A DNA stretch of 64,000 nt from Escherichia phage KarlSchell_Bas89. The DNA lies in the sequence record PQ850613.1; one strand, 5' to 3'. Position 1 is the first letter of the stretch. Every line of letters starts with the position of its first letter. Both the position numbers and the translations under genes were made by a program. Below are positions 17,466 to 38,706 of this stretch, in pieces. The notes under the pieces were generated by a model that worked only from the letters and a program-made list of their open reading frames with translations, had not been told where the DNA came from and made no database searches.

Positions 17466-17676
17466 AACCTACATCCATATCATCCTCCTGCCAAACTCTT
17501 TTATTAACACGGTGACTAACCTTGTCAGCTTTAGGGATACGACCAGTGCGTTGATCAAACAGTTGGTGTTTAATCTTCTGATCTTTACGAGTTTCACGGT
17601 TAGGTGCAGTTTCATCATAAGTACGGTAGTTGAATTTATTACCCATTATCAATATCCTTATTCCAAATTTTATCAA
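17452..17676 (-). CDS. hypothetical small protein
   Basis: ORF between two annotated genes; no motif. Confidence 0.25.
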   Translation of the reverse strand: MIKFGIRILIMGNKFNYRTYDETAPNRETRKDQKIKHQLFDQRTGRIPKADKVSHRVNKRVWQEDDMDVGYGEG

Positions 17677-18502
17677 GCCATGACCACTCGAAGAGGTCTT
17701 CTGGTGTTTGACCTACGAATAGGAGACGAGCATTCTCAAGCATCTTTTCTTCCCATTCTGTATCAAACTTCTTATAATATTCCATTCGCACTATATGATA
17801 AAGAGTCCACTTATCACTTACACCTTGTAAAAGGTTAATAGCAGCTTTCTTTCCAATCCCTTGACGACGGAGTTGTAACTTACCTCCCCACATGACTTCT
17901 TCACGCTCGCCACAACCGGGAATGTTGTCTGTGCCATCACCAATAAGCATTTGATAAAAGAAGTTTTGCCAAGCAACCTCATCTGATACGTAGTGAGGAG
18001 GAACCTCTTTCTGCCTTTCTCCACATGCCCACCGATAATGCCATCCGGGGGTTATCAATAAATCTTTGTCTCGTGTGCAGATGATAGTGTTCTTGTCAGT
18101 TCGCTGCCTTTCTGCTAATGCATCGTCAGCCTCTCTTCCATAAACACCTACATACTCGTAGTTATTTTTAATGTAATCACCAACGTTCTGCCAGTGGAAA
18201 GGTCTTTCTCCCGGAGGTCGGTTGGCTTTGTACCCTTGCTGCTTTGCTACATCAAAACGGAAGTTACCGCCTTCGCTGAAGTAGAAGATTGTCTTTCGGC
18301 AACCAGCGCGAGCAATGATTGTATCAATTTTATTTTGAAGTCGTTCAATTAGAAATCCATAATCTACTGGTGTACGTCCTGTATCTAGGAAAGGATGCTC
18401 CTGAGTCAGAGCACCCACTTCGTATCGGAGAACATCAGCATCAACCAAAGCTACTTCAGGATACTTAACATCTTCCATAAACATCATCCCGAGTTTGAGC
18501 AA
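17639..18502 (-). CDS. 5'-3' exonuclease / flap endonuclease (T7 gp6-like)
   Basis: ALVDADVLRY, GREADDALA, TRDKDLL, IGDGTDNIPG acidic-cluster motifs. Confidence 0.75.
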   Translation of the reverse strand: MLKLGMMFMEDVKYPEVALVDADVLRYEVGALTQEHPFLDTGRTPVDYGFLIERLQNKIDTIIARAGCRKTIFYFSEGGNFRFDVAKQQGYKANRPPGERPFHWQNVGDYIKNNYEYVGVYGREADDALAERQRTDKNTIICTRDKDLLITPGWHYRWACGERQKEVPPHYVSDEVAWQNFFYQMLIGDGTDNIPGCGEREEVMWGGKLQLRRQGIGKKAAINLLQGVSDKWTLYHIVRMEYYKKFDTEWEEKMLENARLLFVGQTPEDLFEWSWLDKIWNKDIDNG

Positions 18503-22694: not shown

Positions 22695-23177
22695 TTAGAT
22701 AGTTAATTTGTGATCTTCCTCCGCTCTGTTTCTGACAGAGACGGCTTCCTCTAGGGTTGAGAAAGTTCCTAGGTATTTAGTTTTACCTTTAATGTGTATG
22801 TTGGCTATGTACTTCCCTCTTGAATTGAGGTACACACCCTTAGCCCCTGAGGTGTTGTTAGAATTCAAACCCTTATTCCAAGAGTTATTCTCGTTGTTAA
22901 CCTCTCTAAGGTTGCCTATGGAATCATTGGAAGGATTTCGATCAATGTGGTCTATTTGATCTTTAGGTAAAACGCCATTAGCAAAATACCAAATGATATG
23001 GTATCTGTAAATAGCTCTTCCTTTCAATCGAATAAACACTCTTCCATCCTTTTTTGAAGTTCCTGCCTCATCACCTCGCCTGCATTTTGTTCCGTTGTGA
23101 ATTCTCCAGAACACTTTCCCAGATGATAAATCACAAACAAAGAACTCATCCAGAAGATCTTCTATCATATCATGCAA
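22695..23177 (-). CDS. HNH homing endonuclease with AP2-like DNA-binding domain
   Basis: IDHIDRNPSNDSIGNLREVNNENN plus YLGTFSTLEEAVSVRNRA. Confidence 0.75.
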   Translation of the reverse strand: MHDMIEDLLDEFFVCDLSSGKVFWRIHNGTKCRRGDEAGTSKKDGRVFIRLKGRAIYRYHIIWYFANGVLPKDQIDHIDRNPSNDSIGNLREVNNENNSWNKGLNSNNTSGAKGVYLNSRGKYIANIHIKGKTKYLGTFSTLEEAVSVRNRAEEDHKLTI

Positions 23178-24858: not shown

Positions 24859-25050
24859 TCACTCTGCCATTTGAGGAATCTCTAGATGCTTTATAGAGAA
24901 GTTTTTATTTGGGAAAGTCTTTATTAGCCAAGCTGCTTCTTGGATAGCTTTGTTTTCTTTCTCGTAAATACAAAGCCGAGCATCCAAGGAAACAATTCTC
25001 CCGGTTTCGCTGACGATTACCCATGTTTTATAGGTATAAGTAGGGGTCAT
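24859..25050 (-). CDS. hypothetical protein
   Basis: ORF only. Confidence 0.3.
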   Translation of the reverse strand: MTPTYTYKTWVIVSETGRIVSLDARLCIYEKENKAIQEAAWLIKTFPNKNFSIKHLEIPQMAE

Positions 25051-25066
25051 TGATAATCCTTTTGAA

Positions 25067-25552
25067 TCAATGTGTGTGATTCCAATTTAATCCAATCTGA
25101 CAGTCAGATGCCAGAGGGCATTCCATCTTGAGATACTCACCAGCTTTCTTAACACAAAGCTCTGTAAGCTCTTTTAGCTTTTGTGCATCATTACGGTGAA
25201 CAGAGAACTGCCCTTCATCGTGCATGTCAATAACCTTCGCACAACGAACACCATCACGCTCAATCCACTTGTTAAGGAAAAGCATGGCATACTTCATAAC
25301 AATCGCACCAGCACTCTGTAAGAGAGTATTCAGTGCTTTATGAACCATTACCTTGCCTGTTGCATCACGTCTCATTGTAATACGACGACCATCAACACCC
25401 AAGATATAACCTTGAGCTGCTTTCTCTGTCATACGCTCAATAAGAATTGCAATACAAGGATTCTCTGCCAAGAAACGTGCTCTCATTACTGCACCTTCTT
25501 CAGAGCCTCCACCAACGATAGAACCGAGCTTAGCATCACCTGCCCCATCAAT
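25067..25552 (-). CDS. DNA polymerase (family A, T7 gp5-like), 3' segment (after the inserted HNH element)
   Basis: Frame open upstream of the listed Met gives IDGAGDAKLGSIVGG...; contains ALNTLLQSAGA and motif C HDE; protein ends in H like T7 gp5 (from memory). Confidence 0.7.
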   Translation of the reverse strand: MDGAGDAKLGSIVGGGSEEGAVMRARFLAENPCIAILIERMTEKAAQGYILGVDGRRITMRRDATGKVMVHKALNTLLQSAGAIVMKYAMLFLNKWIERDGVRCAKVIDMHDEGQFSVHRNDAQKLKELTELCVKKAGEYLKMECPLASDCQIGLNWNHTH

Positions 25553-26332
25553 AGTTCAAGCAAAGGCGCTACTCTTTGCTCCGTTCTCTTATGAACTGCT
25601 TACAGTTTCCTGTAAGATCGGACTATATCTTCATCTCCACCTTTACGTGCTGAGAGACAGGCGCTTCCGTAACACTTGTTACGTACTCCCTTCCGGGATA
25701 GTCTCTGAACTTTCCGTGACACAAACTTTTCTACATAGATCAATGAACTGAGCATCAGATAGTTTACCTTTTGCATTATTCACTTCCCAAGTTACCCATT
25801 GGACATTTCCAATTTCGTAACCTTTCGAATTATCCTTCCTATCTAAAGAAAGTTTATTCGGGTGTCCGCTGACGAAAGATAGTGAATCCCCTGTCAAGGC
25901 ACATTTGTAGTTTTGCTGAGAAAGAAGCTCGAATAAATAGTCTTGAGTAATCGTGAACTCAAAACCCCTTTCTCTAGCTCTGTGATGGGAGTTGTGATAT
26001 CTCTCACGAACCGCTCCACCCCAAGTTTGTCGATATTGTCCCATAGCAGCAGATGCTGCACTTCTGTTTCGACGTCTCCACTCATTTGAAGCAATGCGAG
26101 CACAATTTTTACATTGACATTGCTTTCCATCTTTACTCTTAGATGAATTATGGAAACTGTCGAGTGGCTTTTCTTCGCCACAGCTTGAACATATCTTTGT
26201 CATAAACACCTCCTTGTGTTGATGTTTATGTCACGGCTTAGCTGCTGATTGGCATATCTTTCGACTTAGCTTTCCAGCAATTCACCTGTTTTGCTTCTGC
26301 ACATTTCTATGCAGTGAACCAATTATTTAGTT
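25553..26332 (-). mobile_element. candidate group I intron carrying an HNH endonuclease ORF, inserted in polymerase motif B
   Basis: Upstream piece stops right after TFIYAF, downstream frame resumes at IDGAGD; about 780 nt between, containing an ORF with its own RBS; boundaries approximate. Confidence 0.45.
25679..26209 (-). CDS. HNH homing endonuclease (insertion-encoded)
   Basis: SLDRKDNSKGYEIGNVQWVTWEVN; own RBS AAGGAGG. Confidence 0.8.
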   Translation of the reverse strand: MFMTKICSSCGEEKPLDSFHNSSKSKDGKQCQCKNCARIASNEWRRRNRSAASAAMGQYRQTWGGAVRERYHNSHHRARERGFEFTITQDYLFELLSQQNYKCALTGDSLSFVSGHPNKLSLDRKDNSKGYEIGNVQWVTWEVNNAKGKLSDAQFIDLCRKVCVTESSETIPEGST

Positions 26333-27694
26333 AAAGGCATATATAAATGTCTTCGCATTGTCACGAGTAGGAAGACCAGCAAGTCTCTGGTTGTGGGAGT
26401 GGATATCACCTTCTAATAAAATGTCACGATACATAACAGCAGAAGCTAAACCACGTTCAGCCAATGCTTTCTTACCAGCGTTACCTTCTGCAATGGCTTC
26501 AGCAAGCATGTCTCTACACTCTTTAATGAGGTAGTGAGCAAGCATACGAAGCTCTAATCCAGAACCGTCATAACCTAAGAAGAGTTCTCTACCAGCTGGT
26601 ACATAATATTTATACAGACCTACCGGTTTGTCTTTCTTTCCGGGTTTTCCACGTTCGTAGATAACGTTTGTATTTTTTCGTAAGTAACACCCATCAGGGA
26701 TATTGTTGGTAATGATGAAAGGATAGTTATGACTATCATCTGTGGAGTAGTTAGATTGAAATAAACTCCTACACTCGTGACCAAACAAACCGCGAGAAGG
26801 AATATTAACAACAATGCGATGTTTAAAACGAAATGTCGGAGTAGCGCAGCTATTAGCTTCCGCTGAGAGTTTACCATCTGGACGTTCCTTATCAATCAGT
26901 CCATTAATCAAGCCTAGTCTGTGAGCCGCTACAACACGTCTCTTAAGCAGACTTCCCACTTTACCTAGATCACCCTCAAGACCTTCTTCAAGAGTCTCTT
27001 CGAGGTTTGTAGGAGCTGTGGGCCACTTGTTTGAAGTAGCTAATGCTCTCTTAATTTCATCAAAGGTTACAGGTTTCTTCCTGTTAGGGTTCAAACCTAA
27101 ACCAAAGACATAAGCCTTCATGTAGTTGACAGTTTTGTGACGGAAGTGCTTATCCAAGAACTTCTTGATATCAGCATCAACCATCTGAGCTGTCTGTCGC
27201 TCTTTCTCATTGCCACGCATCCAAGAGTTGTACCATTCTTGATACGTTCCACACTTACGCATGGCTCGCTTAATCTCAAATGTGTTCCAAGGCTTCTTAG
27301 ATGTATTAAATTCTGGAGGAAGAAAACCTTCATCCATCAGTGCTTCTTTAACTCGTGCATCCTTTGATGGGTCAAAGTCAACATACTCAACACAAGTAAA
27401 AGCTCCACCAATATCTTCTCTCTTTAACCCTACTCTGTCGCAATATAATTGAGGCCACTTCTGAAGAGCACCAGTCTTCTTAAAGGGTTTCATGTAAGTA
27501 GAGCCATCAACCCTCATCTTAGGTAACAGAGGAATTAATTCTCTGTCGATGTTAACGATAATCTCTCTGAGAAGGTGAACATACCACCGTGCATTCCTCC
27601 GATTAAAGTTGACACCACTCTTCGCTTGCTTTGAAATTATATCAGCGACAGTCATCTCCGTTAAGAACGGAAGTACATCAGGGTTCTCCATCAC
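26333..27694 (-). CDS. DNA polymerase (family A, T7 gp5-like), 5' segment of polymerase domain
   Basis: GYDGSGLELRMLAHYL (motif A) and LPTRDNAKTFIYAF (start of motif B) closely match T7 gp5 as recalled. Confidence 0.8.
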
Positions 27695-27706
27695 CCTCTC
27701 CTTTTA

Positions 27707-28084
27707 TTATCGGTATAGTAAATCTGTAAATGCTTGATTATCTGCTATTACATCCAAAGCCTCATCCGTGCTAGGAGTTTCAGCTTCTTCTACTTGGTAC
27801 ACAACCTCACGCACACGGAAAGCTCTTGCAGGAACCCTAAAGCCAGCATGTCTCTCCATAACATCTTTCTGAACCTGTGCAAGTTTCATACCCCACACTT
27901 CTTCATAAAGCTCTGGATGTTTATTACTAATAACTACATATTGGCGATGTACGGATTTCGACTCTCTGACCTTAGCTAGTAACTCATTAAACAGGTCTAA
28001 CTCTTCTTCAGAGAGTGCATCCACAATATCTTCCCACTTCTCTACACAGAAGCGGTGGGCATGTCTGATAGGTAATGGCATCAT
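27707..28084 (-). CDS. hypothetical protein
   Basis: ORF directly upstream of polymerase gene. Confidence 0.4.
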   Translation of the reverse strand: MMPLPIRHAHRFCVEKWEDIVDALSEEELDLFNELLAKVRESKSVHRQYVVISNKHPELYEEVWGMKLAQVQKDVMERHAGFRVPARAFRVREVVYQVEEAETPSTDEALDVIADNQAFTDLLYR

Positions 28085-28339
28085 TTACCCCTTAGGGAAA
28101 GGAAGAAGATTTTCTACTGCAACACGATAAACTTTTTCTACGTTTTTGTTTTTATAGGAGATAAACTTGCCATCAGCACCACGAAGAATTACATTAGTGC
28201 GAGCAGTCTTCGGGTTCTGGGAAATCTGACCAGCAATGATAGACGCATTAATCGCATTATCAGCGAAGTTAGCAAACTTCCACTTAACCAGTTTATTGGA
28301 AATTGAATCGATGATAGTTACAGTTTTTACGATAGACAT
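28085..28339 (-). CDS. hypothetical protein
   Basis: ORF only. Confidence 0.35.
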   Translation of the reverse strand: MSIVKTVTIIDSISNKLVKWKFANFADNAINASIIAGQISQNPKTARTNVILRGADGKFISYKNKNVEKVYRVAVENLLPFPKG

Positions 28340-28363
28340 ATTTTATTACCTAAAGGGTTTGTA

Positions 28364-28393
28364 TAAAAGAAAAGGCCACCCAAGCGGGTAGCC
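28364..28393 (-). terminator. putative rho-independent terminator (minus strand)
   Basis: GGCCACCC-AAGC-GGGTAGCC hairpin with A-rich run on plus side. Confidence 0.5.
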
Positions 28394-28398
28394 TCTGA

Positions 28399-28893
28399 TT
28401 AACTAGAGCTTAAAGCGTGTCTGATAGCTGTATGGCTTACACCAAACATCCTACCTAAAGCTCTTGTTCCAAACTGAGCAGAACCTTTGACATAAAGGTT
28501 TTTAACTCTTTTAACATCCTCTGTATTAAGTTTCATTCTAGGGTTTATGTTCCTGTGATGGCCTACATTAAGACCTGTATCAAAAGAATGTTGAACATTC
28601 TCAGAAGCATCTGCCCACTCTAGATTCTCAATACGATTATCACTTTTTACACCATTCTTATGATTTATCTGAGGTTTGTTTTCAGGGTTAGGTATGAAAA
28701 AGGTTGCTATCAACCTATGAGCTTTCCATGACCTCCCTTCAAAATAAACCCTAATATAACCTTTAGTGTCTAAGTGGCCAGCCTCTTTACCCGGATGGCT
28801 CTTATTCCACTTAAAACCTTTTGAAGATGACTCTGTGTAAAACAGACGACCAGAATCTCTATCATAAGAGAGGTAGTCGGATATAGGAATCAC
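28399..28893 (-). CDS. HNH homing endonuclease
   Basis: AHRLIATFFIPNPENKPQINHKNGVKSDNRIENLEWADASEN. Confidence 0.8.
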   Translation of the reverse strand: MIPISDYLSYDRDSGRLFYTESSSKGFKWNKSHPGKEAGHLDTKGYIRVYFEGRSWKAHRLIATFFIPNPENKPQINHKNGVKSDNRIENLEWADASENVQHSFDTGLNVGHHRNINPRMKLNTEDVKRVKNLYVKGSAQFGTRALGRMFGVSHTAIRHALSSS

Positions 28894-29201
28894 TGACTCA
28901 GCGCCCCCTTCCTTCCACCATTTGATTTTCCAGCTCGATCTCCACTTTTGCCGCCAGCTGAACGATTGCTGCTGACTGTCTCAACACGTAAATTGCTTGA
29001 CGCATTAGAGCCTCCTGATTTAATGGCTCGTTTGTGTCCGACATCTTTACCTTTGAGTGCAGATTTTCCAACGCGTTTCTCAACGATGCGACGTGCACGG
29101 TGGCGCTGAGCATCTCCGCTCTTACTTCCAACTCCCGTTTCACCTCTTGCGATGGCTGTACGTCTTTCTTGTGCATAATCTCTTTTAGCCTTATCAGTCA
29201 T
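28890..29201 (-). CDS. basic K/R/G/S-rich small protein (possible nucleic-acid-binding)
   Basis: Good RBS AAGGAG 8 nt upstream; TAATGTATA 37 nt upstream; a second ORF (28898-29176) is open in another frame. Confidence 0.4.
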   Translation of the reverse strand: MTDKAKRDYAQERRTAIARGETGVGSKSGDAQRHRARRIVEKRVGKSALKGKDVGHKRAIKSGGSNASSNLRVETVSSNRSAGGKSGDRAGKSNGGRKGALSQ

Positions 29202-29237
29202 TTACAACTCCTTAATATATCAGTGTACACTAAGGAG

Positions 29238-29246
29238 TATACATTA
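29238..29246 (-). promoter_or_regulatory. TAATGTATA promoter-like element (minus strand)
   Basis: Exact 9-mer on minus strand 37 nt upstream of 29201 start. Confidence 0.45.
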
Positions 29247-29259
29247 TGAGAGGGTAGCT

Positions 29260-30000
29260 TTAGTTGCCACCCTTCTCCATAGCTTTAACGATTGCTTTAC
29301 AGAAACCAGAACGAACAATGTCATCCGAGTCGCCATCAACAATATCAGCGAACTCGTACAGATCATGCTCATCAATGAACTCGGTAGCCCAAGTAAGACC
29401 ACTCTCCCGACCTTTCATATCGTGCTGGTTAGTGTCACCCATGCAGAACAGCTGGGATGTTTCACCCAAGCGGGTCATGATAGAGAATGCTTCATCTTTG
29501 GTTGTATTCTGGAACTCATCCACAATAACAATGGCATCATTGAAAGAGCGACCACGGAGGTATTCCAGAGGCACAAACTCAATATTCCCATTACCAAGCT
29601 GGCATTCATAAAAACCTTTACCATATCGCTGAGTAATCACATCAACAATAGGCATCAGGTATGGTTCGAACTTATCACGAAGCCCACCCGGAAGTAACCC
29701 AAGAGAATTACCCATGCCAACAGAGGGTCGGCTAATGATAATCTTTTGAATCTTACCACTCTTCAGTGCATCAATGACAGTAGAGGTGATGACGAATGTC
29801 TTACCACAGCCCGCAGGAGCGTCTGTGAACACCACTTGTTTAGTCTTGATAGCATTGAGTAGCTCAGATTGAAACTGATTCTGAGGGACCACTGGCTTCG
29901 CTAAAACAACCTCTTCATACTCACGCTTACCTTTCTTGGTGACTAAGGCTTCACGACGTAAATCTTTACGAGATTCTCTACGGGACTGTCTACGGCTCAT
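29260..30000 (-). CDS. phoH: PhoH-like ATPase
   Basis: Walker A DAPAGCGKTF and PhoH-like length/architecture. Confidence 0.8.
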   Translation of the reverse strand: MSRRQSRRESRKDLRREALVTKKGKREYEEVVLAKPVVPQNQFQSELLNAIKTKQVVFTDAPAGCGKTFVITSTVIDALKSGKIQKIIISRPSVGMGNSLGLLPGGLRDKFEPYLMPIVDVITQRYGKGFYECQLGNGNIEFVPLEYLRGRSFNDAIVIVDEFQNTTKDEAFSIMTRLGETSQLFCMGDTNQHDMKGRESGLTWATEFIDEHDLYEFADIVDGDSDDIVRSGFCKAIVKAMEKGGN

Positions 30001-30182
30001 TTGCGCTCTCCTAGCTCTTCGTAATTAAATACAGAGGTTCGACAATCTTTACATATTGTTGTATAGACTCGAACATTAATGAACTTCTTGTTCTTCCCTT
30101 TGGTGGGTGAGCCTTTAGCAAGCTCACTGATAACTTTAGAACTTAAGTTTAGGTTTGTGCCTTCACATTTAGAGCACTTCAC
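29997..30182 (-). CDS. small zinc-ribbon protein
   Basis: CSKCEG ... CKDCR cysteine pairs. Confidence 0.35.
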   Translation of the reverse strand: MKCSKCEGTNLNLSSKVISELAKGSPTKGKNKKFINVRVYTTICKDCRTSVFNYEELGERK

Positions 30183-30345
30183 TCAGGCTCACCAACAGTA
30201 ACTTCCAAAACAACTTGAGAGATGATGTTGTTGATCTGTTTGATTTGCTCATAAGTCAGTTGCATACCTTTCATTTTCCGAGGGGCATTACTTCGTGCTC
30301 TTCGCTGACGATAAAAATTGTTCTTTTTGACAGAGTGTAAGCTAC

Positions 30346-30576
30346 TCATTTTAAATCCACCAACTCAAGATTCCACCAAACATCTTCCATTCTCGGCGAA
30401 CGCCCACCGAATGAGTCGTCGCAGTTCTTGTTGTTTAGGGTGTAATCGATAGAGTAACAAGGCACACCTTCATCTTCTAGCTGCTTTCGAGTCGGTTTAT
30501 CTTGGAACACAGCTTCGAAGTATGAACCATCTTGATCATATTCATTTATTTCACGAGTTAGAACCCATACTTTCAT
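30346..30576 (-). CDS. hypothetical protein
   Basis: ORF only. Confidence 0.3.
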   Translation of the reverse strand: MKVWVLTREINEYDQDGSYFEAVFQDKPTRKQLEDEGVPCYSIDYTLNNKNCDDSFGGRSPRMEDVWWNLELVDLK

Positions 30577-30794
30577 TTCACAACCTTAAACTTAAATGTT
30601 GTTGGGTGGTAGTAGTGTAACCTGTTTATTGTGTGCTTAGTCTCATGATACAGAACACAAGAGTGGCACATTGAATGGTGCAAACAGGTTACTGGATTAC
30701 GTTTGAAATTGGCAATAAGCTTCCGCTTGTTACAGAAGCTACATGTTTTGTGTAAGTCCATTAACTCTCCAGAGTTTTCCTTAGAGCTGACCAA
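30573..30794 (-). CDS. Cys/His-rich small protein
   Basis: CSFC ... CLHHSMCHSC. Confidence 0.35.
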   Translation of the reverse strand: MVSSKENSGELMDLHKTCSFCNKRKLIANFKRNPVTCLHHSMCHSCVLYHETKHTINRLHYYHPTTFKFKVVK

Positions 30795-31417
30795 GAAATT
30801 GGGTAGAGTTTAGCCATCTCTTCATCTAATGACTGAGCAAACAGTCGAACTTCATACTGAGCATGGGATGATAGTCGTTGACGACACAATTCAAACCAGC
30901 CATACAAGCTACCAGTCCAGACCCACTCAGTAATCATTCCCTGAGGAAGAACAAAGCGAGCTTGCTCTGGTGCAATAAATTCAATTAGCTTATCATACGC
31001 TGCCAGTGAAGCTTCGTATGCATTATTGATCAGCATTAATGCTTCGGCTCGTTCTCCGTTGACAAGCTGTGTCCCTGAACCTGCATGGAGGTCCGAAGGT
31101 CTCGCAAAAATCTCTTTAGGGATGAAGACTTCAACTGCTCCATCTTTATACCGCCGGGACATTTCGTTCCACGAGAACCCAATTTGGTGTTTTCCAAGCT
31201 GTCTCGCAATTGCGATAGGTGCTTTGCATCGGAAACTGACTTGTGGGTGTCGGAATGGCGTAACATGCTTCTCTCTTGCGAGAAAGTTGATGAGACGTTC
31301 ATCGCGATCATTTAAATCACCTTCGCGGGTTACGCCAAAGGAAACTCGAGCTGCGTTTACTACGCTACGATCACTTCCCATAGCTTCGATTAATGTTGCT
31401 TGTAATTGTTCATTCAT
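30761..31417 (-). CDS. thyX: flavin-dependent thymidylate synthase ThyX-like
   Basis: KAPIAIARQ ... SWNEMSRRY and LSSHAQYE match ThyX signature regions as recalled; canonical RHR appears as KHQ. Confidence 0.75.
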   Translation of the reverse strand: MNEQLQATLIEAMGSDRSVVNAARVSFGVTREGDLNDRDERLINFLAREKHVTPFRHPQVSFRCKAPIAIARQLGKHQIGFSWNEMSRRYKDGAVEVFIPKEIFARPSDLHAGSGTQLVNGERAEALMLINNAYEASLAAYDKLIEFIAPEQARFVLPQGMITEWVWTGSLYGWFELCRQRLSSHAQYEVRLFAQSLDEEMAKLYPISWSALRKTLES

Positions 31418-31436
31418 CCGTGAATTTCCTTATTTC

Positions 31437-31712
31437 TTATTTAATATCCAAAGCTGTTACTAAGAAAGCTTTCAGGTTTGCTTCAGTCTGCATACCAGAT
31501 AAGCTATAATGTGCTCCGCTGTTACGATTAGGCACAATGAAAGCAGGAATGCTTCGTACACCGTACTCGATAGCTCGCTCACGACCGTTGCCTTCGAGGA
31601 TATTAACCTCTTCAACTTCTAGGTTAAGCTCTTCAGCTAATTTGTTGAGGGTAGGAGCCATTGCTTTGCAAGGGGCACATTGATTACTATAAAACTTAAT
31701 AATTTTGTTCAT
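31437..31712 (-). CDS. thioredoxin/glutaredoxin-like protein
   Basis: CAPC active-site-like motif near N-terminus, about 90 aa. Confidence 0.55.
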   Translation of the reverse strand: MNKIIKFYSNQCAPCKAMAPTLNKLAEELNLEVEEVNILEGNGRERAIEYGVRSIPAFIVPNRNSGAHYSLSGMQTEANLKAFLVTALDIK

Positions 31713-31719
31713 AAAAACC

Positions 31720-31974
31720 TTAAGCAGTGATCAGGTGGAGGGTAAATGGGATGACCACAGAGATAATAACCCAAGCAACAGATGCGATTTGGATTTCATT
31801 CTTCTTGTCCGGTGTCTCTTCAATAAGTTTCTTGCTGCCATAATAAACACCGCCGCCAATGAGAAGTGCCCAAATACTCCAAATGGTTGCTGATAACATA
31901 TTCAATTCCTTATAAACAAGTTCGCCCCACCTCGGATTAGGAGACAGGGCGGAGGTTTTAGTATGAGACGTCAC
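31720..31974 (-). CDS. small membrane protein (two predicted TM helices; holin-like)
   Basis: Hydrophobic segments IWSIWALLIGGGVYY and VAWVIISVVIPFTLHLI. Confidence 0.3.
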   Translation of the reverse strand: MTSHTKTSALSPNPRWGELVYKELNMLSATIWSIWALLIGGGVYYGSKKLIEETPDKKNEIQIASVAWVIISVVIPFTLHLITA

Positions 31975-32545
31975 TGGAGTGTGACATGTTACTTTTAACG
32001 AAGTAGCAATACTTGCCTAACCCTTCGTTGATTTCTTGGAGCATGCTCTGGTCAACTGGATACTCGCTCAAACATCCATCGAACTCATCCATTTTGTCAA
32101 TCATGCACATTAAAGACATGCACATATCAGAGAGCATACCATCCATATCTAGGTCTGCATTTCCTTCAGAGAACCAAGAGTGTGACAAGTAGTTAGAAGC
32201 AGTTGCATCCACCTTAATACAGTGGAAACGCATACGTTCAGCTATCCGATCACCTGTCTCACGAGCATAATCTTCCAGCTCATCAAACATTCCATGAACA
32301 CCCTGAAACCCTGCACCAGATACGTTCCAGTGATAATTCTTAGCTTTGATATGCAAGAGTTCTAAGTTAGCTTGAATACCGCATAGAATGTGTTCTAGGC
32401 TGTTTCCACTAATCATCCCTTGCATACGCTCTAAACGGGAGATAGAAGAGTCTGTTTCACGTAATACATCACGGAAAGAAGTCTCTTTTGTTAGAGTTGG
32501 TAAGTCGAAAACATTGTGATTAGACATTAGGATTTTCTCCATCAA
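31958..32545 (-). CDS. Dps/ferritin-like protein
   Basis: KNYHWNVSGAGFQGVHGMFDELEDYARETGDRIAERM resembles the Dps signature region. Confidence 0.5.
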   Translation of the reverse strand: MMEKILMSNHNVFDLPTLTKETSFRDVLRETDSSISRLERMQGMISGNSLEHILCGIQANLELLHIKAKNYHWNVSGAGFQGVHGMFDELEDYARETGDRIAERMRFHCIKVDATASNYLSHSWFSEGNADLDMDGMLSDMCMSLMCMIDKMDEFDGCLSEYPVDQSMLQEINEGLGKYCYFVKSNMSHSSDVSY

Positions 32546-32849
32546 GTTCTACTGAGTTCGCAACATTGCGTTCCAGATTTGAGATTACCTGTTGGGTGAT
32601 AACGATGCAGTTCTGTGGGTCAACTGACTTAGAACGTCCCATCTCAGGGTCATACACCTTAACACGTTTTGCTGTAGAACCAGTTACCTGTAACACCTTG
32701 AGAAGATAACCCTGATTCCCGATAGACCATGCAACAACATCACGATTCTTGATGAATCGACCAAGCATATCACGATGGTAGAACTGCTGCATAACCTTTG
32801 ATTTATTAATCTCTTCGGCTGGCGGAGCCACTTTACTCAAATCTAACAT
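32520..32849 (-). CDS. hypothetical protein
   Basis: ORF; TATACATTT (one-mismatch promoter-like 9-mer on minus) about 40 nt upstream. Confidence 0.35.
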   Translation of the reverse strand: MLDLSKVAPPAEEINKSKVMQQFYHRDMLGRFIKNRDVVAWSIGNQGYLLKVLQVTGSTAKRVKVYDPEMGRSKSVDPQNCIVITQQVISNLERNVANSVELDGENPNV

Positions 32850-32921
32850 TTCACTCTCTCCTGTTTAATACAATATTCTTATACTGTATATACATTTGAG
32901 AGTGATCATATCTACTACCAA

Positions 32922-33134
32922 TTAGTAGTAAACATATCCAGAGATATATGAGCCTTTATCCCCACTAAACTCAAACCATCGATGCATGTCAGCACGTTTA
33001 ACCGTACCGACTAGAGCTTTCATATTCTTCTTAGCAATACGAGCCTCTTTACGAGTGTTAAACAGTTTGATATTATCTTTACCTAGATGGTGTCCATCTT
33101 CCCAAACAACACGAACAGCCCACATCTTTTTCAT
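32922..33134 (-). CDS. small basic protein, member of tandem paralog trio
   Basis: MKKMWAVRVVWEDG ... YISGYVYY shared pattern with two neighbours. Confidence 0.45.
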   Translation of the reverse strand: MKKMWAVRVVWEDGHHLGKDNIKLFNTRKEARIAKKNMKALVGTVKRADMHRWFEFSGDKGSYISGYVYY

Positions 33135-33349
33135 TAGTAATGCACCTTTCCGCTGATATAAATACGGCCTGAGGTATACTCATAGCCCTTGAGAATCTTG
33201 ACAGAGGTAAGATATCCAGTGTGTAATTCACTGAACGATTTCTTAAGCCTACGTGCGCCTTCTCGTGTTTTCTGGTAGGTCATGGTCACACCCCCACTTG
33301 TCCACTCTGTTCTAACTAACCAAACTCTTTTCATAAGACCTGCTCTCAT
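33134..33349 (-). CDS. small basic protein, member of tandem paralog trio
   Basis: MKRVWLVRTEW ... IYISGKVHY. Confidence 0.45.
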   Translation of the reverse strand: MRAGLMKRVWLVRTEWTSGGVTMTYQKTREGARRLKKSFSELHTGYLTSVKILKGYEYTSGRIYISGKVHY

Positions 33350-33546
33350 TAGTAGTACACCTTGCTGCCAGCCATGAAAGCCCCTGTCGAGCTTATAATA
33401 ACCTTACTGATAGTAACTTTCTTATGCCGGAAGTATGTCTTCCAGCCCTTTTTACAGATTCGAGCTTCTTGTCGAGTCTTACAAAAGTCAGCCAAAGACA
33501 GCTCTTGGGTTTTGTTATCATAAACACGAACACACCACTTTTTCAT
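33349..33546 (-). CDS. small basic protein, member of tandem paralog trio
   Basis: MKKWCVRVYDNKT ... GSKVYY. Confidence 0.45.
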   Translation of the reverse strand: MKKWCVRVYDNKTQELSLADFCKTRQEARICKKGWKTYFRHKKVTISKVIISSTGAFMAGSKVYY

Positions 33547-34071
33547 TTATCTTTCATCCACATTAAAGGAGAGATGGAGTCTGCTTCTCATAGACTTAGC
33601 TAAAAGTTTTGCCTCTTCGAGAGTTTTCACTCCATATACAGACTCACGTTTACCATCTTTTTGAACAGAGACACAGAACGTCCCACCTTTCTCTTGGTAG
33701 ACATTCTTAATCCCTAGCTTGTTATCAACTCTGGTCTTAGCATTCTGACTATTTTCAGAGTGAGAACACTTTCTCAGGTTAATTTCTTCTAGATTCCCTC
33801 TGTTACCATCAGCGTGATCTATTTGATATTCATCCGATAAATCCTCACCAGTATAAAGAACAAAAAGAATCCTATGATTATGGACACGAACTCCTCCTAA
33901 GGGAATTTGGTAATATCCATCTTTTGTGAGTTTTCCAGCAGGTTTCCCTGCTATATCATTAGCAAATTTACTAGGCTTCCTTTTCCAAGAAAGCCCTGAC
34001 GGGGATGACATGTCTATGTTAAAAAGATCAAACACTTCATCATAGCATATCAGCATGGTTTGTTCCACCAA
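33547..34071 (-). CDS. HNH homing endonuclease with AP2-like domain
   Basis: YQIDHADGNRGNLEEINLRKCSHSENSQN. Confidence 0.75.
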   Translation of the reverse strand: MVEQTMLICYDEVFDLFNIDMSSPSGLSWKRKPSKFANDIAGKPAGKLTKDGYYQIPLGGVRVHNHRILFVLYTGEDLSDEYQIDHADGNRGNLEEINLRKCSHSENSQNAKTRVDNKLGIKNVYQEKGGTFCVSVQKDGKRESVYGVKTLEEAKLLAKSMRSRLHLSFNVDER

Positions 34072-34594
34072 AAGCTTTTGTTGGCCCTTGTTGGTTATTG
34101 TATGAACCTTTAGTTGCGTAACTATCTTCTTCAGAGGAGGAGTGTTTAAAGAACTCCATTTGACCGATACGCATTCCCGGCTTAATTAGCAAAGAGTGAT
34201 GCTGTAGGACGTTCTTGAATTCCATAGTAAGTTGGCTCCCATGCCACCCACCGTCAGCATGACCAGCGTGCATGTGCTCTAAGAAGCAACGACCAACAGT
34301 GGACCGTAACATGAAGTCACAACTAATATTATCTGGCAGGTTGAATGTCTCCACTGTATGAGCCAAGAAGCACTCACCCGGTTTGATAACTAAACCTTCT
34401 TCTGGAATCATAACCTCGTTGAAGTTAGGAGACTCTTTAGCGGAGATATCAACAACCCCATTAGCTGCTCCTTCCATCAGAACACGGTCTCCAATACGAA
34501 CATCAATACTGGAGGAGTTAACAGCTGAGTGAGGTGCATCAATAACACCATCATCGATTAGTTTATGTAATTCCGGACTTCCTAATAAACTCAT
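34040..34594 (-). CDS. dcd: dCTP deaminase-like (dUTPase superfamily)
   Basis: N-terminus and length resemble Dcd; beta-rich, Gly-rich loops. Confidence 0.6.
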   Translation of the reverse strand: MSLLGSPELHKLIDDGVIDAPHSAVNSSSIDVRIGDRVLMEGAANGVVDISAKESPNFNEVMIPEEGLVIKPGECFLAHTVETFNLPDNISCDFMLRSTVGRCFLEHMHAGHADGGWHGSQLTMEFKNVLQHHSLLIKPGMRIGQMEFFKHSSSEEDSYATKGSYNNQQGPTKAFGGTNHADML

Positions 34595-34608
34595 TCTTAT
34601 TCCTTGTA

Positions 34609-35889
34609 TTAATCTGCGATACTATCGCTTTCATCAACCCAGACTGTACCATTAACCTGTCTTAGACGACGAGCTGACGCTTCGTTAATAGAGTTAACCC
34701 CTGCTGTGCGAGGGTTTGTGTACCAAGGTCGAGCTATGGTGCCCTCTCGAATCACTTGGTTCGTTTCGACATGCCATCTGTTTGATACCATGTTGGCTTC
34801 AAAGTTACCACCCGCTCCACCACTGATAGGCACAGCTTGAGCTGGTTGGTTTACTCGGTTAGTTCCTGCCCCAAAGGATGCTGCAAATTCAGACATACGT
34901 GCATCAAATGCAGAACGAACACGCTGAGTAGGTGATATATCATTTCGTGTATCTACTGCACGAGGCATAGCCCAAGTATCATCTGTTGAGATATCAGGGG
35001 TAGGCTCTTGCTCTAGAGGTTGAAGATTAGCTGTCCATTGACTGTTCAGTATACGATAGAAATCTGCACCATAACCACTTCGGATAACATCTTCTCTGAT
35101 ACCAAAAAAGCGACTAATATCTCCACCGATTCGGGCCAACTTATCGTTGTATGTAGATACAGATACCCCACTTTCTGTTACTAAGTCAGAAACACGACTT
35201 GTTGTAAGTGGTGAGTTATTCCAACAATAATAGTCAGTAATGTGGCCGTCATACCCAAAGTATGCAACCTCTGCATCAGGCCATTTCTTGTGGACATATG
35301 CCACTTCGCGAGTAGAACAAACAGGGATTGCGCCTGTTTCAGTCATTGCATAGAAGCCGTCAGAAGAGAACCAAAGTGAGTCTAGTGCTAAGAATCCACG
35401 ACACACACTTGGGAAAGTAGCAGCCAGCGCCCCAAGTGAGGTGGGTTCGTTGAACATTAACTGAACCTTTGCACCCTGATAATCAATCTCTAGGATATCT
35501 ACAAAATTCAAAGAAGACCCAGGGGCATATTGACTATTACTTCGTCCAATATCCTGCTCAACAAGAAGAGATCTTGTTTCAACACCATGAGCCTCTGCCC
35601 ACTCTTTGAAATCTTCAAGGAACAAGCGAGCCTTAGCTCGCCACATCGACCGATCAGTTACGGATTGTCTCGGCAATCCGCCCTCTGTAGTGATGAGGAA
35701 GATATCAATGTCATGGGGCTCACGCGTCTGGAAGATTGCATCCCTAACAGCACCACCTGCAATGATAGGGTACACACCATCAGGGATTAAACGGTTTGCA
35801 ATCAACTCGTTAATTAACGTAAGACCAGACATAAGCTGCGGACTGTCATCAATCCGACGACGAATTAGTGCATTAGGGATATTATACAT
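34609..35889 (-). CDS. nucleotidyltransferase with Pol-beta/CCA-adding-type head motif
   Basis: IIAGGAVRDAIFQTREPHDIDIF matches GGxVRD...DxD; start ATG directly abuts the stop of the exonuclease gene. Confidence 0.45.
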   Translation of the reverse strand: MYNIPNALIRRRIDDSPQLMSGLTLINELIANRLIPDGVYPIIAGGAVRDAIFQTREPHDIDIFLITTEGGLPRQSVTDRSMWRAKARLFLEDFKEWAEAHGVETRSLLVEQDIGRSNSQYAPGSSLNFVDILEIDYQGAKVQLMFNEPTSLGALAATFPSVCRGFLALDSLWFSSDGFYAMTETGAIPVCSTREVAYVHKKWPDAEVAYFGYDGHITDYYCWNNSPLTTSRVSDLVTESGVSVSTYNDKLARIGGDISRFFGIREDVIRSGYGADFYRILNSQWTANLQPLEQEPTPDISTDDTWAMPRAVDTRNDISPTQRVRSAFDARMSEFAASFGAGTNRVNQPAQAVPISGGAGGNFEANMVSNRWHVETNQVIREGTIARPWYTNPRTAGVNSINEASARRLRQVNGTVWVDESDSIAD

Positions 35890-36438
35890 TTACATTTTCC
35901 AATATAAAGATGGGGGGTCATTTGGGTCAAAGTTTGCAATATGACAAAGATATTTATAAACCTTAACCGTTAAGTTTACATCCTGTTCACAATAAGTAAA
36001 CATGTCCTCTGTAAAGGCATCCCATGCTTCTTCCTGTTCACCGTAATCACCCTTAAGCTCTTCTAAGAACTCACCCCATTGCTTTAAGCCATGACCTCTT
36101 GGGCCATGTCTAGGGTCGCCTTTCGGATACTCAGGACTGTCACCAATACGGTCAGGTTTAAGATACCGACTCAGACATAAAGTGTCTAGGACGTTGAATT
36201 TGTAATCAATCAAATCAGGGTACATCTTCTTCAGAGCACATAAGTCGAAGTCAATAACGTTATGACCTACAACAACATCAGCCTCTGTAAGTTTCTTGAT
36301 ACCCTCTTCAATCTGGTGAGGACGAAATCCCCACCGTTCACCAGTTGCTATATCAAAGATAAAGATACACCATACGTTTGTGATATCGTCGTACAGTGCA
36401 TCACTCTCAATATCAAATGCGTAGACTTTCTTTACCAC
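35890..36438 (-). CDS. DNA polymerase 3'-5' exonuclease domain protein (T7 gp5 N-terminal-domain-like), separate gene
   Basis: [11 protein letters not shown] (Exo I), [14 protein letters not shown] (Exo II), YCEQDVNLT (Exo III) align with the T7 gp5 N-terminus as recalled. Confidence 0.75.
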
Positions 36439-38222
36439 GGGCTTTTCTCTCCATCTTGAGCAAGAAGTGATGCTGCATCCTCTCCATTTGTCAGCGAGAA
36501 TGGATTTTCTTCATCAATTTCATGTTCTTCACGCTCAAGCAGTCGTCCCGTCTCTCCTACATATTTCGTATAGCACACCCCTGTTTGTCCATAGTTACGC
36601 TCTTTGAGGAGTCGTATAATGGAGAGGTTCTTAGCCAGACCATCTGCTTGTTTGTCACGTTCAAAACCGATGATACATTGACACCAACGCATAAGAGAAC
36701 GAGAGCCAGTAAACTGTACCTCTCGAACCTGACCACCTTCTTCATGAGGTGCACCACCTGCCGGAGCATTGAGGTGAGATAATACGAATGCTGTGAAGTT
36801 TAATTCTTGACACATACCAGCAAGCTCGGAAGCAATCTTACTGATTTCAGTGTTAATCTCTGAAGGTGTTAAATGAGACACCAGAGCGGTAATATTATCA
36901 AGGATGATAAACTTACACTGGTTTTCAACAACCCAGAAACGGATACACTGTTTAATGTCGGCCCATTCATTCTGACCAAAGTTATCATAGAGGAAGAATT
37001 TATCTGCATATCGAAGAGCTTCGTTACGCAATGTATCTTCATCATACTCAACATCAGGTCTGTGGAAAGGGATAGATGCTGACTTACCTGCAATGTTCTT
37101 AACGGACATTCCGACCTTCTCTTCCAAGAAGAATCCACCACCATTAAAACCATGCTCAAGACAAAGCCAAGCAACCAGTTCATGTGCAATCAGTGTTTTA
37201 CCAGAGCCTACACCGCCACCAATTGCTACCATCTCTCCCCAACGAATACCGTAGGTCATCTCATTAAGAGTCTTCCACGGATATGGGATACCCCACTCTG
37301 CTTTCTTCAGAGCATCATCTAAGCAATCAAAAACAGTTACAGCACCAGCTGGAGATTCACGCTTCGCTGAATATTTAAGAATGTTAAACAACTCCTGACC
37401 ACGACCAGAGAGAAGCATATCATTCGCATCTTTAAGTTCTTTCTCAACACCATTGTACTGGAAAGAACCTTTAGGAATACGAGCAAACTTCACATGTGGG
37501 AACAGAGCACGCCCTTTGGTAAGAGCAATCTCACCAGCATCATCGTTGTCCATACAGAGGACAACCTCTTCAAAACCATTCAAGAACTCACGGTTGCGAG
37601 ATAGAACGGAAGAGATTGACCCTGCACCGAATGGTAAAGAGACACACGCTGGTTTAATGTTTGTTGCATTTGTAAAAGCTGTAAGAACGTGGAAGCCAGA
37701 CATACAAGACAAGGGGTCTTCAAAGATGAAGAGCTTCTTATTGTACACATCTCCACGTTTAGCCTGTGCCATACCAAACAAATCAGCTTCTTTCACACTA
37801 CCGATGTAATAAAACTTTTTACTATCGAGCAGTTTAACCTCATAACCGACAATGTTTCCATCACGTTCACGAGGGAAGAAGTAACTATCCGGTGTCTGAC
37901 CATCAGTTTGACTGAGACCTATACGACACTCAAAACGCTCTGATACAGCTTTAGGGATTAATCGACGAGTGAGTTCTCCTTGAGGTAACTCCAAGCAATC
38001 ATCCAAGACTTCTCGAAGTTCTTCAGGGGACAGCTCTTTCTTTTCATTTGGTGTAGGTGTCGTGCCTTTCTCAAAGACTTCGTAATTACCACACCGGTTG
38101 CAACTTCCAAAAGTTTCTTCAGTTTCTTCGTTATGAAACAGAATCATATGATTGCCGGTCTTGTCCCTACCATGTGACTGGCATTCTTTACAAGCGCAAT
38201 CTCCAATAATCTTTTTAGACAT
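36432..38222 (-). CDS. DNA primase/helicase (T7 gp4-like)
   Basis: Zinc ribbon CACKEC...[23 protein letters not shown], Walker [20 protein letters not shown]; start at internal Met 38222 with GGAG upstream. Confidence 0.85.
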
Positions 38223-38706
38223 ATAATCTCCATCCGTGAGTTTGTTTATATTCTCCGCTATATAACCTGTAAAGGGCGGCAGAATCAACACCAGAAAGCC
38301 TTGAAAGCTGTCTTATACTATCACCTGAAACAATTTCCCCATTACTAGAGACGATCGACATACTCTTACCAAAAGAATATATCTGATTGTACTCAGAAGT
38401 GCACCACTCTAGATTCTCTACCAGATTATTATCTGGCTGTTCATCTATATGATTAACTTGAGGTAAGTTTTCAGGGTTAGGAAGGAAAGCTATAGCTACT
38501 AATCTGTGTACACTTCTAGTACATTTAACACCTTCAGAGTTTGTCATTCTCACGTAAAGATATTTACGACTATAATGTAGAGACTTGATAGCTGGCTCTG
38601 TGGGAGGTTTTCTCCCACGTCCAGTAATTCTCCAAGATCTTATACGTCCAAAGGATGAAACCTCATACCCCGGAAAATCTGTAATTGGTTTCCATTCTTC
38701 TGACAT
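38215..38706 (-). CDS. HNH homing endonuclease
   Basis: VHRLVAIAFLPNPENLPQVNHIDEQPDNNLVENLEW. Confidence 0.8.
   Translation of the reverse strand: MSEEWKPITDFPGYEVSSFGRIRSWRITGRGRKPPTEPAIKSLHYSRKYLYVRMTNSEGVKCTRSVHRLVAIAFLPNPENLPQVNHIDEQPDNNLVENLEWCTSEYNQIYSFGKSMSIVSSNGEIVSGDSIRQLSRLSGVDSAALYRLYSGEYKQTHGWRLYV

Follow-up and report, generated by a model that had tools for sequence, protein, structure and literature searches.

A T7 gp5-like DNA polymerase with its exonuclease and polymerase domains in separate genes of an Escherichia phage, and a group I intron in polymerase motif B

Results

The DNA analysed here (the window) comprises 64,000 nucleotides of Escherichia phage KarlSchell_Bas89, and all features described below lie on its minus strand. 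Judged from its sequence, the source is a phiEco32-like podophage (Gordonclarkvirinae), a coliphage whose nearest relatives are KBNP1711 and EP335 (93-94% nucleotide identity) and whose gene order is that of phiEco32. A T7 gp4-like primase/helicase gene (36432..38291; Pfam DnaB_C and Toprim_2), the orthologues of which are annotated as 'DNA primase/helicase' in KBNP1711 and phiEco32, probably starts at an internal ATG near 38222. It lies directly upstream of the exonuclease gene, with a 7-nt overlap. The latter (35890..36438) encodes a predicted 3'-5' proofreading exonuclease subunit of 182 aa, an orthologue of phiEco32 gp74 that is 98% identical to the exonuclease subunit of KBNP1711, and its stop abuts the start of a nucleotidyltransferase gene.

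The preliminary description of this locus had taken the 182-aa protein for a T7 gp5-type N-terminal exonuclease with Exo I, II and III that ends near the exonuclease/polymerase boundary, and this holds. BLASTP aligns its residues 9-172 with residues 5-193 of T7 gp5 (30% identity, E = 5e-16), and in a PDB sequence search the sole matches were T7 DNA polymerase (residues 4-182, E = 6e-9). The protein scores 26.6 bits against Pfam DNA_pol_A_exo1 (PF01612; cut-off 23.6) and matches the PHROG 'DNA polymerase exonuclease subunit' at 3e-70 and 4e-36. As read from the sequence, the motifs are intact: Exo I D9-x-E11, Exo II N60-x3-F64-D65 and Exo III Y149-x3-D153 align with D5/E7, the HN..YD motif and the Y..QD motif of T7. 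A DEDDy 3'-5' exonuclease is defined by a Pfam score that exceeds the cut-off and by the patterns DxE (Exo I), NxxxFD (Exo II) and YxxxD (Exo III), all of which the protein has.

The polymerase domain had been placed at 25067-27694. Motifs A, B and C are present there, but this stretch is not the single ORF of one gene product: a 455-aa ORF (26327-27694) is followed by 780 nt of intervening sequence and then by a second exon. Exon 1 (26329..27694) contributes the N-terminal palm, a thumb with two inserts, motif A and the part of motif B that ends in ...FIYAFN, as well as the first base of the Tyr codon, while exon 2 (25067..25548) supplies what remains of motif B ((Y)GAGDAKLG...) together with the fingers and palm and with motif C. 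The 139-aa ORF of exon 2 on its own matches Pfam DNA_pol_A (4e-15, 56 bits), and the spliced product of 615 aa reaches 84.5 bits with this model (PF00476; cut-off 34.3). With the family A patterns DxSxxE (A), RxxxKxxxFxxxYG (B) and HDE (C), the motifs read YDGSGLELR, RDNAKTFIYAFN|YG and MHDEG, all of which align with those of T7; motif B is whole only once the intron is removed. The spliced polymerase aligns with T7 gp5 at residues 217-373 (E = 1e-5) and 318-704 (E = 1e-37), and after intron removal it is collinear with the 614-aa gp53 of phiEco32. An AF2 model of the SGF2 polymerase (87% identical; pLDDT 92.5) has T7 gp5 as its best structural match (Foldseek E = 3e-26). On these comparisons we assign the spliced product to the family A DNA polymerases as a T7 gp5-like member and predict polymerase activity for it.

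No exonuclease domain accompanies the polymerase: a Pfam search with the 455-aa ORF product gave no match, and pairwise comparison found no similarity between this product and the exonuclease protein. Placed on one PHROG polymerase profile (PHROG 17), the three pieces lie side by side with no overlap, the exonuclease covering 670-825, exon 1 836-1072 and exon 2 1097-1233. A T7 gp5-like family A polymerase is thus encoded here in two genes, one for its exonuclease domain and one for its polymerase domain, and the two part at the domain boundary of gp5, between residue 193 at the end of the exonuclease alignment and about residue 217 at the start of the polymerase alignment. From the exonuclease stop to the polymerase start we measured 8,195 nt, close to the 8 kb first estimated.

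The intervening sequence (25549..26328) is a 780-nt group I intron of IA type with P7.1 and P7.2, identified by two partial matches to Rfam Intron_gpI, by a copy in Escherichia phage LAMP (MG673519) and by restoration of the reading frame. The initial reading of the polymerase gene had overlooked it. The intron sits within the Tyr codon of motif B, its excision restores the frame ...KTFIYAFN-Y-GAGDAKLG..., and the exon junction is given by comparison with phiEco32 and EP335, whose genes are uninterrupted. A U-G pair marks the 5' splice site in P1 (U at 26329), where the exon AACU|AA pairs with the intron sequence UUGGUU, and the intron closes with ...UAUUG, the last G of which is 25549. Elements P, Q, R and S were found at 26282-26269, 26250-26241, 25710-25698 and 25631-25620, the P3-P9 core with P7 is present, and hairpins P7.1, P7.2 and P9 were located. 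Rfam Intron_gpI (RF00028) gives two half-matches in the window (34.7 and 48.1 bits), each under the gathering score of 50, because a 476-nt ORF insertion divides the match; the ORF-less LAMP copy scores 100.8 bits.

Outside the ORF segment the intron is identical to the LAMP copy (304/304 nt), whereas the flanking exons are 81-84% identical, and identical introns span different genera. The intron thus moved recently. It is present in KBNP1711 and absent from EP335 and phiEco32, and by these sequence comparisons it is a recently mobile element that few members of the group carry. The pre-mRNA must, by inference, self-splice. In this polymerase clade the region that codes for motif B may be a hotspot for introns: metagenomic relatives are interrupted at three positions, and one relative has two introns around a mini-exon of 16-17 nt.

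The intron carries an ORF of 174 aa (25679..26203) in the P6a loop that runs into P7, P7.1 and P7.2 and is preceded by the Shine-Dalgarno sequence AAGGAGGTG ahead of its ATG. Its product resembles His-Me/EndoVII/HNH homing endonucleases, with matches to PHROG 1035 'endonuclease VII' (1e-43), 3322 and 3118 'HNH endonuclease'; Pfam, NCBIfam and PDB sequence searches with it gave no match. In the motif SLDRKDNSKGYEIGNVQWV an Arg stands at the position expected for the first HNH histidine (LDRKD). Since this Arg replaces the His and no Pfam HNH match was obtained, nuclease activity of the product is uncertain.

Between the polymerase and exonuclease genes lies a block of 8.2 kb with about 20 ORFs (27695..35889), in the same order in KBNP1711, phiEco32 and EP335. 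It contains the nucleotidyltransferase (34609-35889; PHROG), a dCTP deaminase (34040-34594), an HNH gene (33547-34071; Pfam HNH_3), a Dps/ferritin-like protein (31958-32545), a thioredoxin, ThyX (30761-31417), PhoH (29260-30000), a second HNH gene (28399-28893; Pfam HNH_3) and a conserved 125-aa ORF with no assigned function (27707-28084). The functions proposed earlier for the interval genes, like all coordinates given at that stage, were confirmed. The thioredoxin-like gene (31437..31712) encodes 91 aa with a CAPC active site and matches Pfam Thioredoxin at 3e-13; its match to the NCBIfam thioredoxin model (3.9e-13) is under that model's cut-off. Homologues of it are confined to C3-type phages of Escherichia, Shigella, Proteus and Cronobacter.

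Elsewhere in the window, a gene of its own (17639..18502) encodes a candidate FEN-like 5'-3' exonuclease (PHROG 107 'exonuclease', 6e-67; Pfam 5_3_exonuc_N at 1e-5, under the cut-off). A separate 5'-3' exonuclease gene has been described for the phage group (YF01 paper). By sequence similarity, the candidate would be a third Pol I-type activity on its own gene.

Discussion

The split between exonuclease and polymerase is not new for this phage group, in which it has been both annotated and published. The record of phiEco32 names gp74 'DNA polymerase exonuclease subunit' and states that it 'contains 3'-5' exonuclease domain', while gp53 'lacks 5'-3' and 3'-5' exonuclease domains', and a 2023 paper (YF01) reported the separation as common to all group members. 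The preliminary description was silent on this earlier work. The window has separate orthologues of gp74 and gp53 and a polymerase without exonuclease domain, which is the phiEco32-type arrangement. The same split is found in KBNP1711, phiEco32, EP335 and the LUZ24-like phage Clew-3, about 100 independent phage records and many metagenomic contigs show this architecture, and in roughly 100 closest polymerase homologues (496-618 aa; PF00476 only) an exonuclease domain occurred in none. The split is old and is common to the whole group and to LUZ24-like phages. Our literature search located no report of an association of the two subunits or of proofreading in trans.

We consider it very probable that the locus encodes a T7 gp5-type replicase as separate exonuclease and polymerase subunits that associate, the split being old and the polymerase gene carrying a recently mobile, self-splicing intron. 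The gene for the 182-aa DEDDy 3'-5' exonuclease has stayed right behind the gp4-like primase/helicase gene, at the place where T7 gene 5 starts, and the gene for a polymerase-only subunit of 615 aa lies 8.2 kb downstream on the same strand. The group I intron would self-splice from the pre-mRNA and join exon 1 to exon 2, and the two polypeptides may then associate non-covalently to a proofreading polymerase. This association is modelled on the alpha and epsilon subunits of E. coli Pol III and on the packing of the domains within T7 gp5. In Pol III, polymerase and DEDD proofreader are separate polypeptides that bind non-covalently (PMC2528190). The likeness is a functional analogy: the Pol III polymerase belongs to family C and that of the window to family A, and epsilon has a dedicated C-terminal tether, whereas an equivalent tail is not evident in the 182-aa exonuclease.

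Alternatively, the exonuclease could act alone in host DNA breakdown, recombination or RNA processing, leaving the polymerase without a dedicated proofreader. The position of its gene, away from the polymerase gene and wedged between helicase and nucleotidyltransferase genes, would be compatible with such a role. However, outside the group it is most closely related to the N-terminal domains of T7-type polymerases and to proteins annotated as 'polymerase exonuclease subunits', its end coincides exactly with the domain boundary of gp5, it holds the gene 5 position behind the helicase in two distant phage groups, and it always co-occurs with an exonuclease-less polymerase, all of which makes an independent role unlikely.

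It is still less probable that the polymerase gene remains unspliced, and that the 455-aa and 139-aa ORFs are translated apart, their products then coming together again in a fractured enzyme, with a free-standing endonuclease gene as the cause of the split. Gene callers do annotate these ORFs as separate CDSs in KBNP1711, and an SD-like GAAGGTG precedes the ATG at 25486. Translation from this ATG would, however, lose 21 upstream codons of the conserved YGAGDAKLGSIVGGG...V stretch, the Tyr-Gly of motif B included; moreover, all hallmarks of group I introns are found in the intervening sequence, and the LAMP record joins the polymerase exons. Rejoining of exonuclease and polymerase to one gp5-like chain by a split intein or by trans-splicing of their mRNAs is highly improbable: metagenomes are reported to contain fractured genes that are joined through split inteins (PMC2677866), but Pfam found no intein domain in either protein, and intein halves have no room, as residue 172 of the 182 of the exonuclease reaches gp5 193 and the polymerase aligns from residue 13. 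An assembly or sequencing artefact or a polymerase pseudogene can be practically dismissed in view of the many independent records noted above, the intact ORFs with all catalytic motifs, and the fact that both KBNP1711 and LAMP were deposited as phage isolates, each with its host named.

Among known systems, gene order and spacing are identical to those of phiEco32 gp74/gp53 and the Gordonclarkvirinae orthologues, and the phiEco32 group has the neighbours nucleotidyltransferase, dCTP deaminase, Dps-like, thioredoxin, ThyX and PhoH in common, whereas the window interval contains extra free-standing HNH genes. The polymerase gene is uninterrupted in phiEco32 and EP335 (614 aa) but contains the intron in the window and in KBNP1711. 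LUZ24-like (Bruynoghevirus) Pseudomonas phages, whose polymerase is labelled 'DNA polymerase part I / part II', share the order helicase-exonuclease-insert-polymerase, with an exonuclease gene overlapping the helicase end, and the upstream ligase, amidotransferase and AIG2-like genes. Their exonuclease-less polymerase has 545 aa and is 35% identical over 98% of exon 1. In Clew-3 the helicase-exonuclease overlap is followed by about 1.9 kb of small genes before the polymerase, compared to 8.2 kb in the window.

The intron belongs to the same class, with P7.1 and P7.2, as the IA2 introns with HNH genes in DNA polymerases of phages such as SPO1, SP82, Bastille, Pf-WMP3, phiL7, PhiI/W31 and the Bastillevirinae. 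Shared with these, too, are an ORF that begins in P6a and extends into P7, a highly conserved coding site and a patchy spread among close relatives. The intron sites reported in E. coli Pol I numbering are 674, 676 and 881 (PMC3428280), whereas the window intron lies in the codon equivalent to Tyr766 of motif B, and its ORF, unlike theirs, lacks a recognisable Pfam HNH domain. In LAMP the polymerase CDS is annotated as a two-piece join with the same insertion site; its intron is without the 476-nt segment, which contains the ribosome-binding site and most of the ORF.

For both pieces T7 gene 5 polymerase (PDB 1T7P and others) is the top match in sequence and structure, and in T7, too, gene 5 comes after the gp4-like primase/helicase gene. 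The T7 enzyme is a single 704-aa chain that relies on host thioredoxin, in contrast to the two genes of the window, whose phage encodes its own thioredoxin, a candidate processivity partner of the polymerase. The window polymerase has an insert of 46-50 aa between two long thumb helices, the position of the thioredoxin-binding domain (TBD) at the tip of the T7 thumb, and differs from T7 by a further clade-specific thumb insert of 65-95 aa. The alignment of the former insert with gp5 262-331 is weak and lies inside the HSP of E = 1e-5. The same insert is present in LUZ24-like polymerases, and a homologue search found no counterpart of this thioredoxin in their phages. That the thioredoxin serves processivity was already proposed for phage Privateer in a 2021 paper. 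Along the lines published for Privateer, one could imagine the replicase as an all-phage family A holoenzyme of three proteins, in which polymerase, trans-acting exonuclease and the 91-aa thioredoxin, docked as processivity factor on the thumb insert at the TBD position, act together; we regard this only as a tentative idea, with the odds rather against it. If it were true, the phage would be independent of host trxA.

Exonuclease and polymerase domains lie on separate genes

The region 25000-38300 matched 99 phage records in megablast, nearly all of them Escherichia or Shigella phages of the phiEco32 group (Gordonclarkvirinae), with KBNP1711 (93% identity) and EP335 (94.5%) as the best matches. 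Its genes are carried on the minus strand in the order of the annotated tables of KBNP1711, phiEco32 and EP335. The preliminary description had assigned the 182-aa protein encoded at 35890-36438 (minus strand) to the N-terminal exonuclease type of T7 gp5, and this proved right: in direct BLASTP, residues 9-172 align with gp5 5-193 (30% identity, E = 5e-16), and the catalytic motifs read from the sequence (D9-I-E11, N60-x3-F-D65 and Y149-x3-D153) are intact. The protein also matches Pfam DNA_pol_A_exo1 (26.6 bits, above the cut-off of 23.6) as well as PHROG phage protein families named 'DNA polymerase exonuclease subunit', and T7 DNA polymerase residues 4-182 were its sole match in a PDB sequence search (E = 6e-9).

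The polymerase gene (25067-27694, minus strand) is separated from the exonuclease gene by 8,195 nt. It does encode a polymerase domain, as had been proposed, but in two exons with an intron rather than in one ORF. The spliced product passed Pfam DNA_pol_A (84.5 bits) and aligned with T7 gp5 217-373 (E = 1e-5) and 318-704 (E = 1e-37). Since Pfam detected no exonuclease domain in the polymerase ORF, direct comparison gave no similarity between the exonuclease protein and the 455-aa polymerase ORF, and the exonuclease and the two exons cover successive, non-overlapping stretches of a single PHROG polymerase profile (670-825, 836-1072 and 1097-1233), the polymerase product holds no complete exonuclease domain. 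The gp5 alignments of both pieces bear out the location of the two domains on separate genes. An assembly or sequencing artefact was considered as a reading of the split and rejected, and a split intein rejoining both proteins is excluded by size, because the T7 gp5 alignments leave no room for it.

The observation is thus confirmed and the two-gene interpretation supported, but the arrangement is nothing unusual in this phage group and was described before. The RefSeq record of phiEco32 names gp74 'DNA polymerase exonuclease subunit' (note: 'contains 3'-5' exonuclease domain') and gp53 DNA polymerase (note: 'lacks 5'-3' and 3'-5' exonuclease domains'). Besides this record, the split is present in LUZ24-like Pseudomonas phages and, according to the literature, in the whole group; it was seen in Salmonella phage 7-11, Proteus phage Privateer, Vibrio phage Vp_R1 and Aeromonas phage BUCT695 (YF01 paper, 2023). 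A split polymerase has been recognised in phiEco32-like phages and their relatives ever since the phiEco32 record of 2008. The ~100 database homologues closest to the polymerase have PF00476 only and, incomplete ones aside, are 496-618 aa long, the LUZ24-like 'DNA polymerase part II' among them.

A group I intron interrupts the polymerase gene

At the exon junction phiEco32 gp53 is uninterrupted (...NAKTFIYAFNYGAGDAKLGSIVGGGADEGSVMRARF...). In the window, the 455-aa ORF ends after ...FIYAFN and a 139-aa ORF begins at MRARF; the codons (Y)GAGDAKLGSIVGGGSEEGAV, missing from the latter, stand in frame just upstream of its ATG. The frame is restored by a junction at which exon 1 ends ...AAC-T (26329), the intron runs AAAUAAUUGG...CUAUUG (26328..25549, minus strand) and exon 2 continues AT-GGG... 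(25548), and intron removal yields a 615-aa polymerase. A fractured polymerase of two polypeptides was rejected, as the Tyr-Gly of motif B would be lost. The U at the 5' splice site pairs with G in a P1 of six base pairs (AACU/AA with UUGGUU, the slash marking the site), the last base of the intron is G, and the core elements P, Q, R and S, the helices P3, P6a, P7.1, P7.2 and P9 and distal P9 hairpins were located.

Rfam Intron_gpI matched the two intron halves with 34.7 bits (E = 6e-7) and 48.1 bits (E = 6e-11), the match being split because of a 174-aa ORF (25679-26203, minus strand). At the gathering threshold, Rfam found in the whole window only a tRNA gene (53290-53363, minus strand; 58.7 bits); the intron was recovered only with an E-value threshold on the local region and via the ORF-less copy of Escherichia phage LAMP (MG673519). 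This copy, which lacks a 476-nt segment with most of the ORF, scores 100.8 bits (E = 7e-27) and equals the window at all 304 shared positions, and the LAMP record gives the polymerase CDS as a join of two pieces. Judged from sequence, the intervening sequence is a group I intron, and the polymerase mRNA would self-splice. As an addition to the annotation the intron is correct, but it comes as no surprise. In the KBNP1711 RefSeq record (gp050-gp052), the exons and the intron ORF are entered as independent 'DNA polymerase', 'endonuclease' and 'putative DNA polymerase'. The three 'DNA polymerase' CDSs of KBNP1711 and the window represent one exonuclease subunit and two exons of a single polymerase gene, for which a join annotation as in LAMP is apt.

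Intron ORF and intron mobility

With a good Shine-Dalgarno sequence ahead of it, the intron ORF starts in the P6a loop and extends through P7, P7.1 and P7.2. PHROGs are its sole classifier, with matches to families labelled endonuclease VII, endonuclease and HNH endonuclease. Since Pfam, NCBIfam and PDB sequence searches gave no useful match and the ORF reads LDRKD where the first histidine of the HNH motif is expected, its activity is uncertain. Window and LAMP share the intron at 100% identity, compared with 81% for exon 1 and 84% for exon 2; against KBNP1711, 777 of 780 intron positions and 97.7% of the exons are identical. It is absent from EP335, which belongs to the genus of KBNP1711, and from phiEco32, and within the phage collection it was found in KBNP1711 and LAMP only. 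Identity and distribution show the pattern of a recently spreading element, and the intron ORF or a relative may have promoted homing.

Taking motif B of Pol I to read RRSAKAINFGLIYG, alignment with RDNAKTFIYAFNYG of the window puts the intron within the codon that corresponds to Tyr766. Phage DNA polymerase genes are well-known hosts of group I introns with HNH genes (SPO1, SP82, Bastille, Pf-WMP3, phiL7, PhiI/W31). PMC3428280 lists insertion sites at 674, 676 and 881 (E. coli Pol I numbering). As the Tyr766 codon differs from these sites, this is a known kind of intron at a further site; the literature searched gave no description of an intron in kuravirus polymerase genes.

The metagenomic relative L005 (4340-5900; polymerase 79% identical) has two intervening sequences in motif B, split by a mini-exon of 16-17 nt encoding IYAFN. 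The second is homologous to the intron of the window (89% at nucleotide level); the first, which scores only weakly against Rfam group I (21.7 and 14.5 bits), has its own endonuclease-like ORF of 160-182 aa. About 18 of the 70 closest exon-1 homologues (proteins P0007-P0062), including that of BUCT695, end inside motif B, after KTF, KTFI or FIYAF[N/L], and these three end positions suggest repeated intron insertions in a short stretch of motif B.

Neighbouring genes

The genes between exonuclease and polymerase proved to be those initially listed (nucleotidyltransferase, dCTP deaminase, HNH, Dps-like, thioredoxin-like, ThyX, PhoH). The 426-aa nucleotidyltransferase (34609-35889, minus strand) starts at the base after the exonuclease stop and matched PHROG 12715 only, with no match in Pfam or NCBIfam. 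It carries a GGAVRD...DIDIF motif that resembles the heads of CCA-adding and poly(A) polymerases. In addition to the intron ORF, the window carries five free-standing HNH-type endonuclease genes (16332-16835, 22695-23177, 28399-28893, 33547-34071 and 38215-38706, all minus strand); the gene tables of KBNP1711 and phiEco32 list nothing corresponding at the positions of those at 28399, 33547 and 38215. A conserved 125-aa ORF (27707-28084, minus strand; PHROG 11427), which directly precedes the polymerase gene in every relative examined, may encode an accessory protein of replication. A candidate 5'-3' exonuclease is encoded at 17639-18502 (minus strand; PHROG 107, Pfam 5_3_exonuc_N below cut-off). 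Should this candidate hold, each of the three Pol I-type activities has a gene of its own, in line with what the YF01 paper describes across the group.

Polymerase structure and thioredoxin

The SGF2 polymerase, which is 87% identical to the window's spliced polymerase, gave a confident AlphaFold2 model (pLDDT 92.5), whose best PDB matches were T7 gp5 structures (E ~3e-26), with Bst and Taq polymerases ranking lower. Two inserts lie between the long thumb helices at 31-55 and 241-267. Insert A (residues 57-104) corresponds in position to the T7 thioredoxin-binding domain and gives a weak alignment to it. Insert B, a mostly helical, confidently modelled thumb insert of ~90 aa (residues 134-228, encoded within 26330-27694, minus strand), is clade-specific, with 65-95 aa including LUZ24-like polymerases compared to ~8 aa in distant family A relatives.

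T7 does not grow on a trxA-deficient host. The conserved phage thioredoxin was proposed to couple with the polymerase as in T7 (PMC7881722). Homologues of this thioredoxin were found only in C3-type phages of Escherichia, Shigella, Proteus and Cronobacter and do not correlate with insert A, which the entire clade has, LUZ24-like phages that lack this thioredoxin included. This distribution neither supports nor excludes a role of thioredoxin in processivity, which may exist and is compatible with the data. In SU10 virion preparations, mass spectrometry detected DNA polymerase, thioredoxin (52.8% coverage) and Dps-like protein together, either packaged or as contaminants (PMC4281155).

Origin and significance of the split

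In T7, gene 5 directly follows the helicase gene. In the LUZ24-like phage Clew-3, which shares upstream ligase, amidotransferase and AIG2-like genes with phiEco32-like phages, the exonuclease gene overlaps the end of the helicase gene and the polymerase follows after ~1.9 kb of small genes. In the simplest reading, the exonuclease part would keep the ancestral gene-5 position, while inserted genes would have separated the polymerase part from it, in a block grown to 8 kb in the phiEco32 lineage. Both polypeptides probably form a non-covalent proofreading complex like Pol III alpha and epsilon, a precedent for such an association of polymerase and proofreader (PMC2528190).

Beyond correct annotation, the importance of these findings is small. 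The system would allow testing whether phage thioredoxin replaces host thioredoxin, and it would offer a convenient natural setting in which to study proofreading in trans by a family A polymerase.
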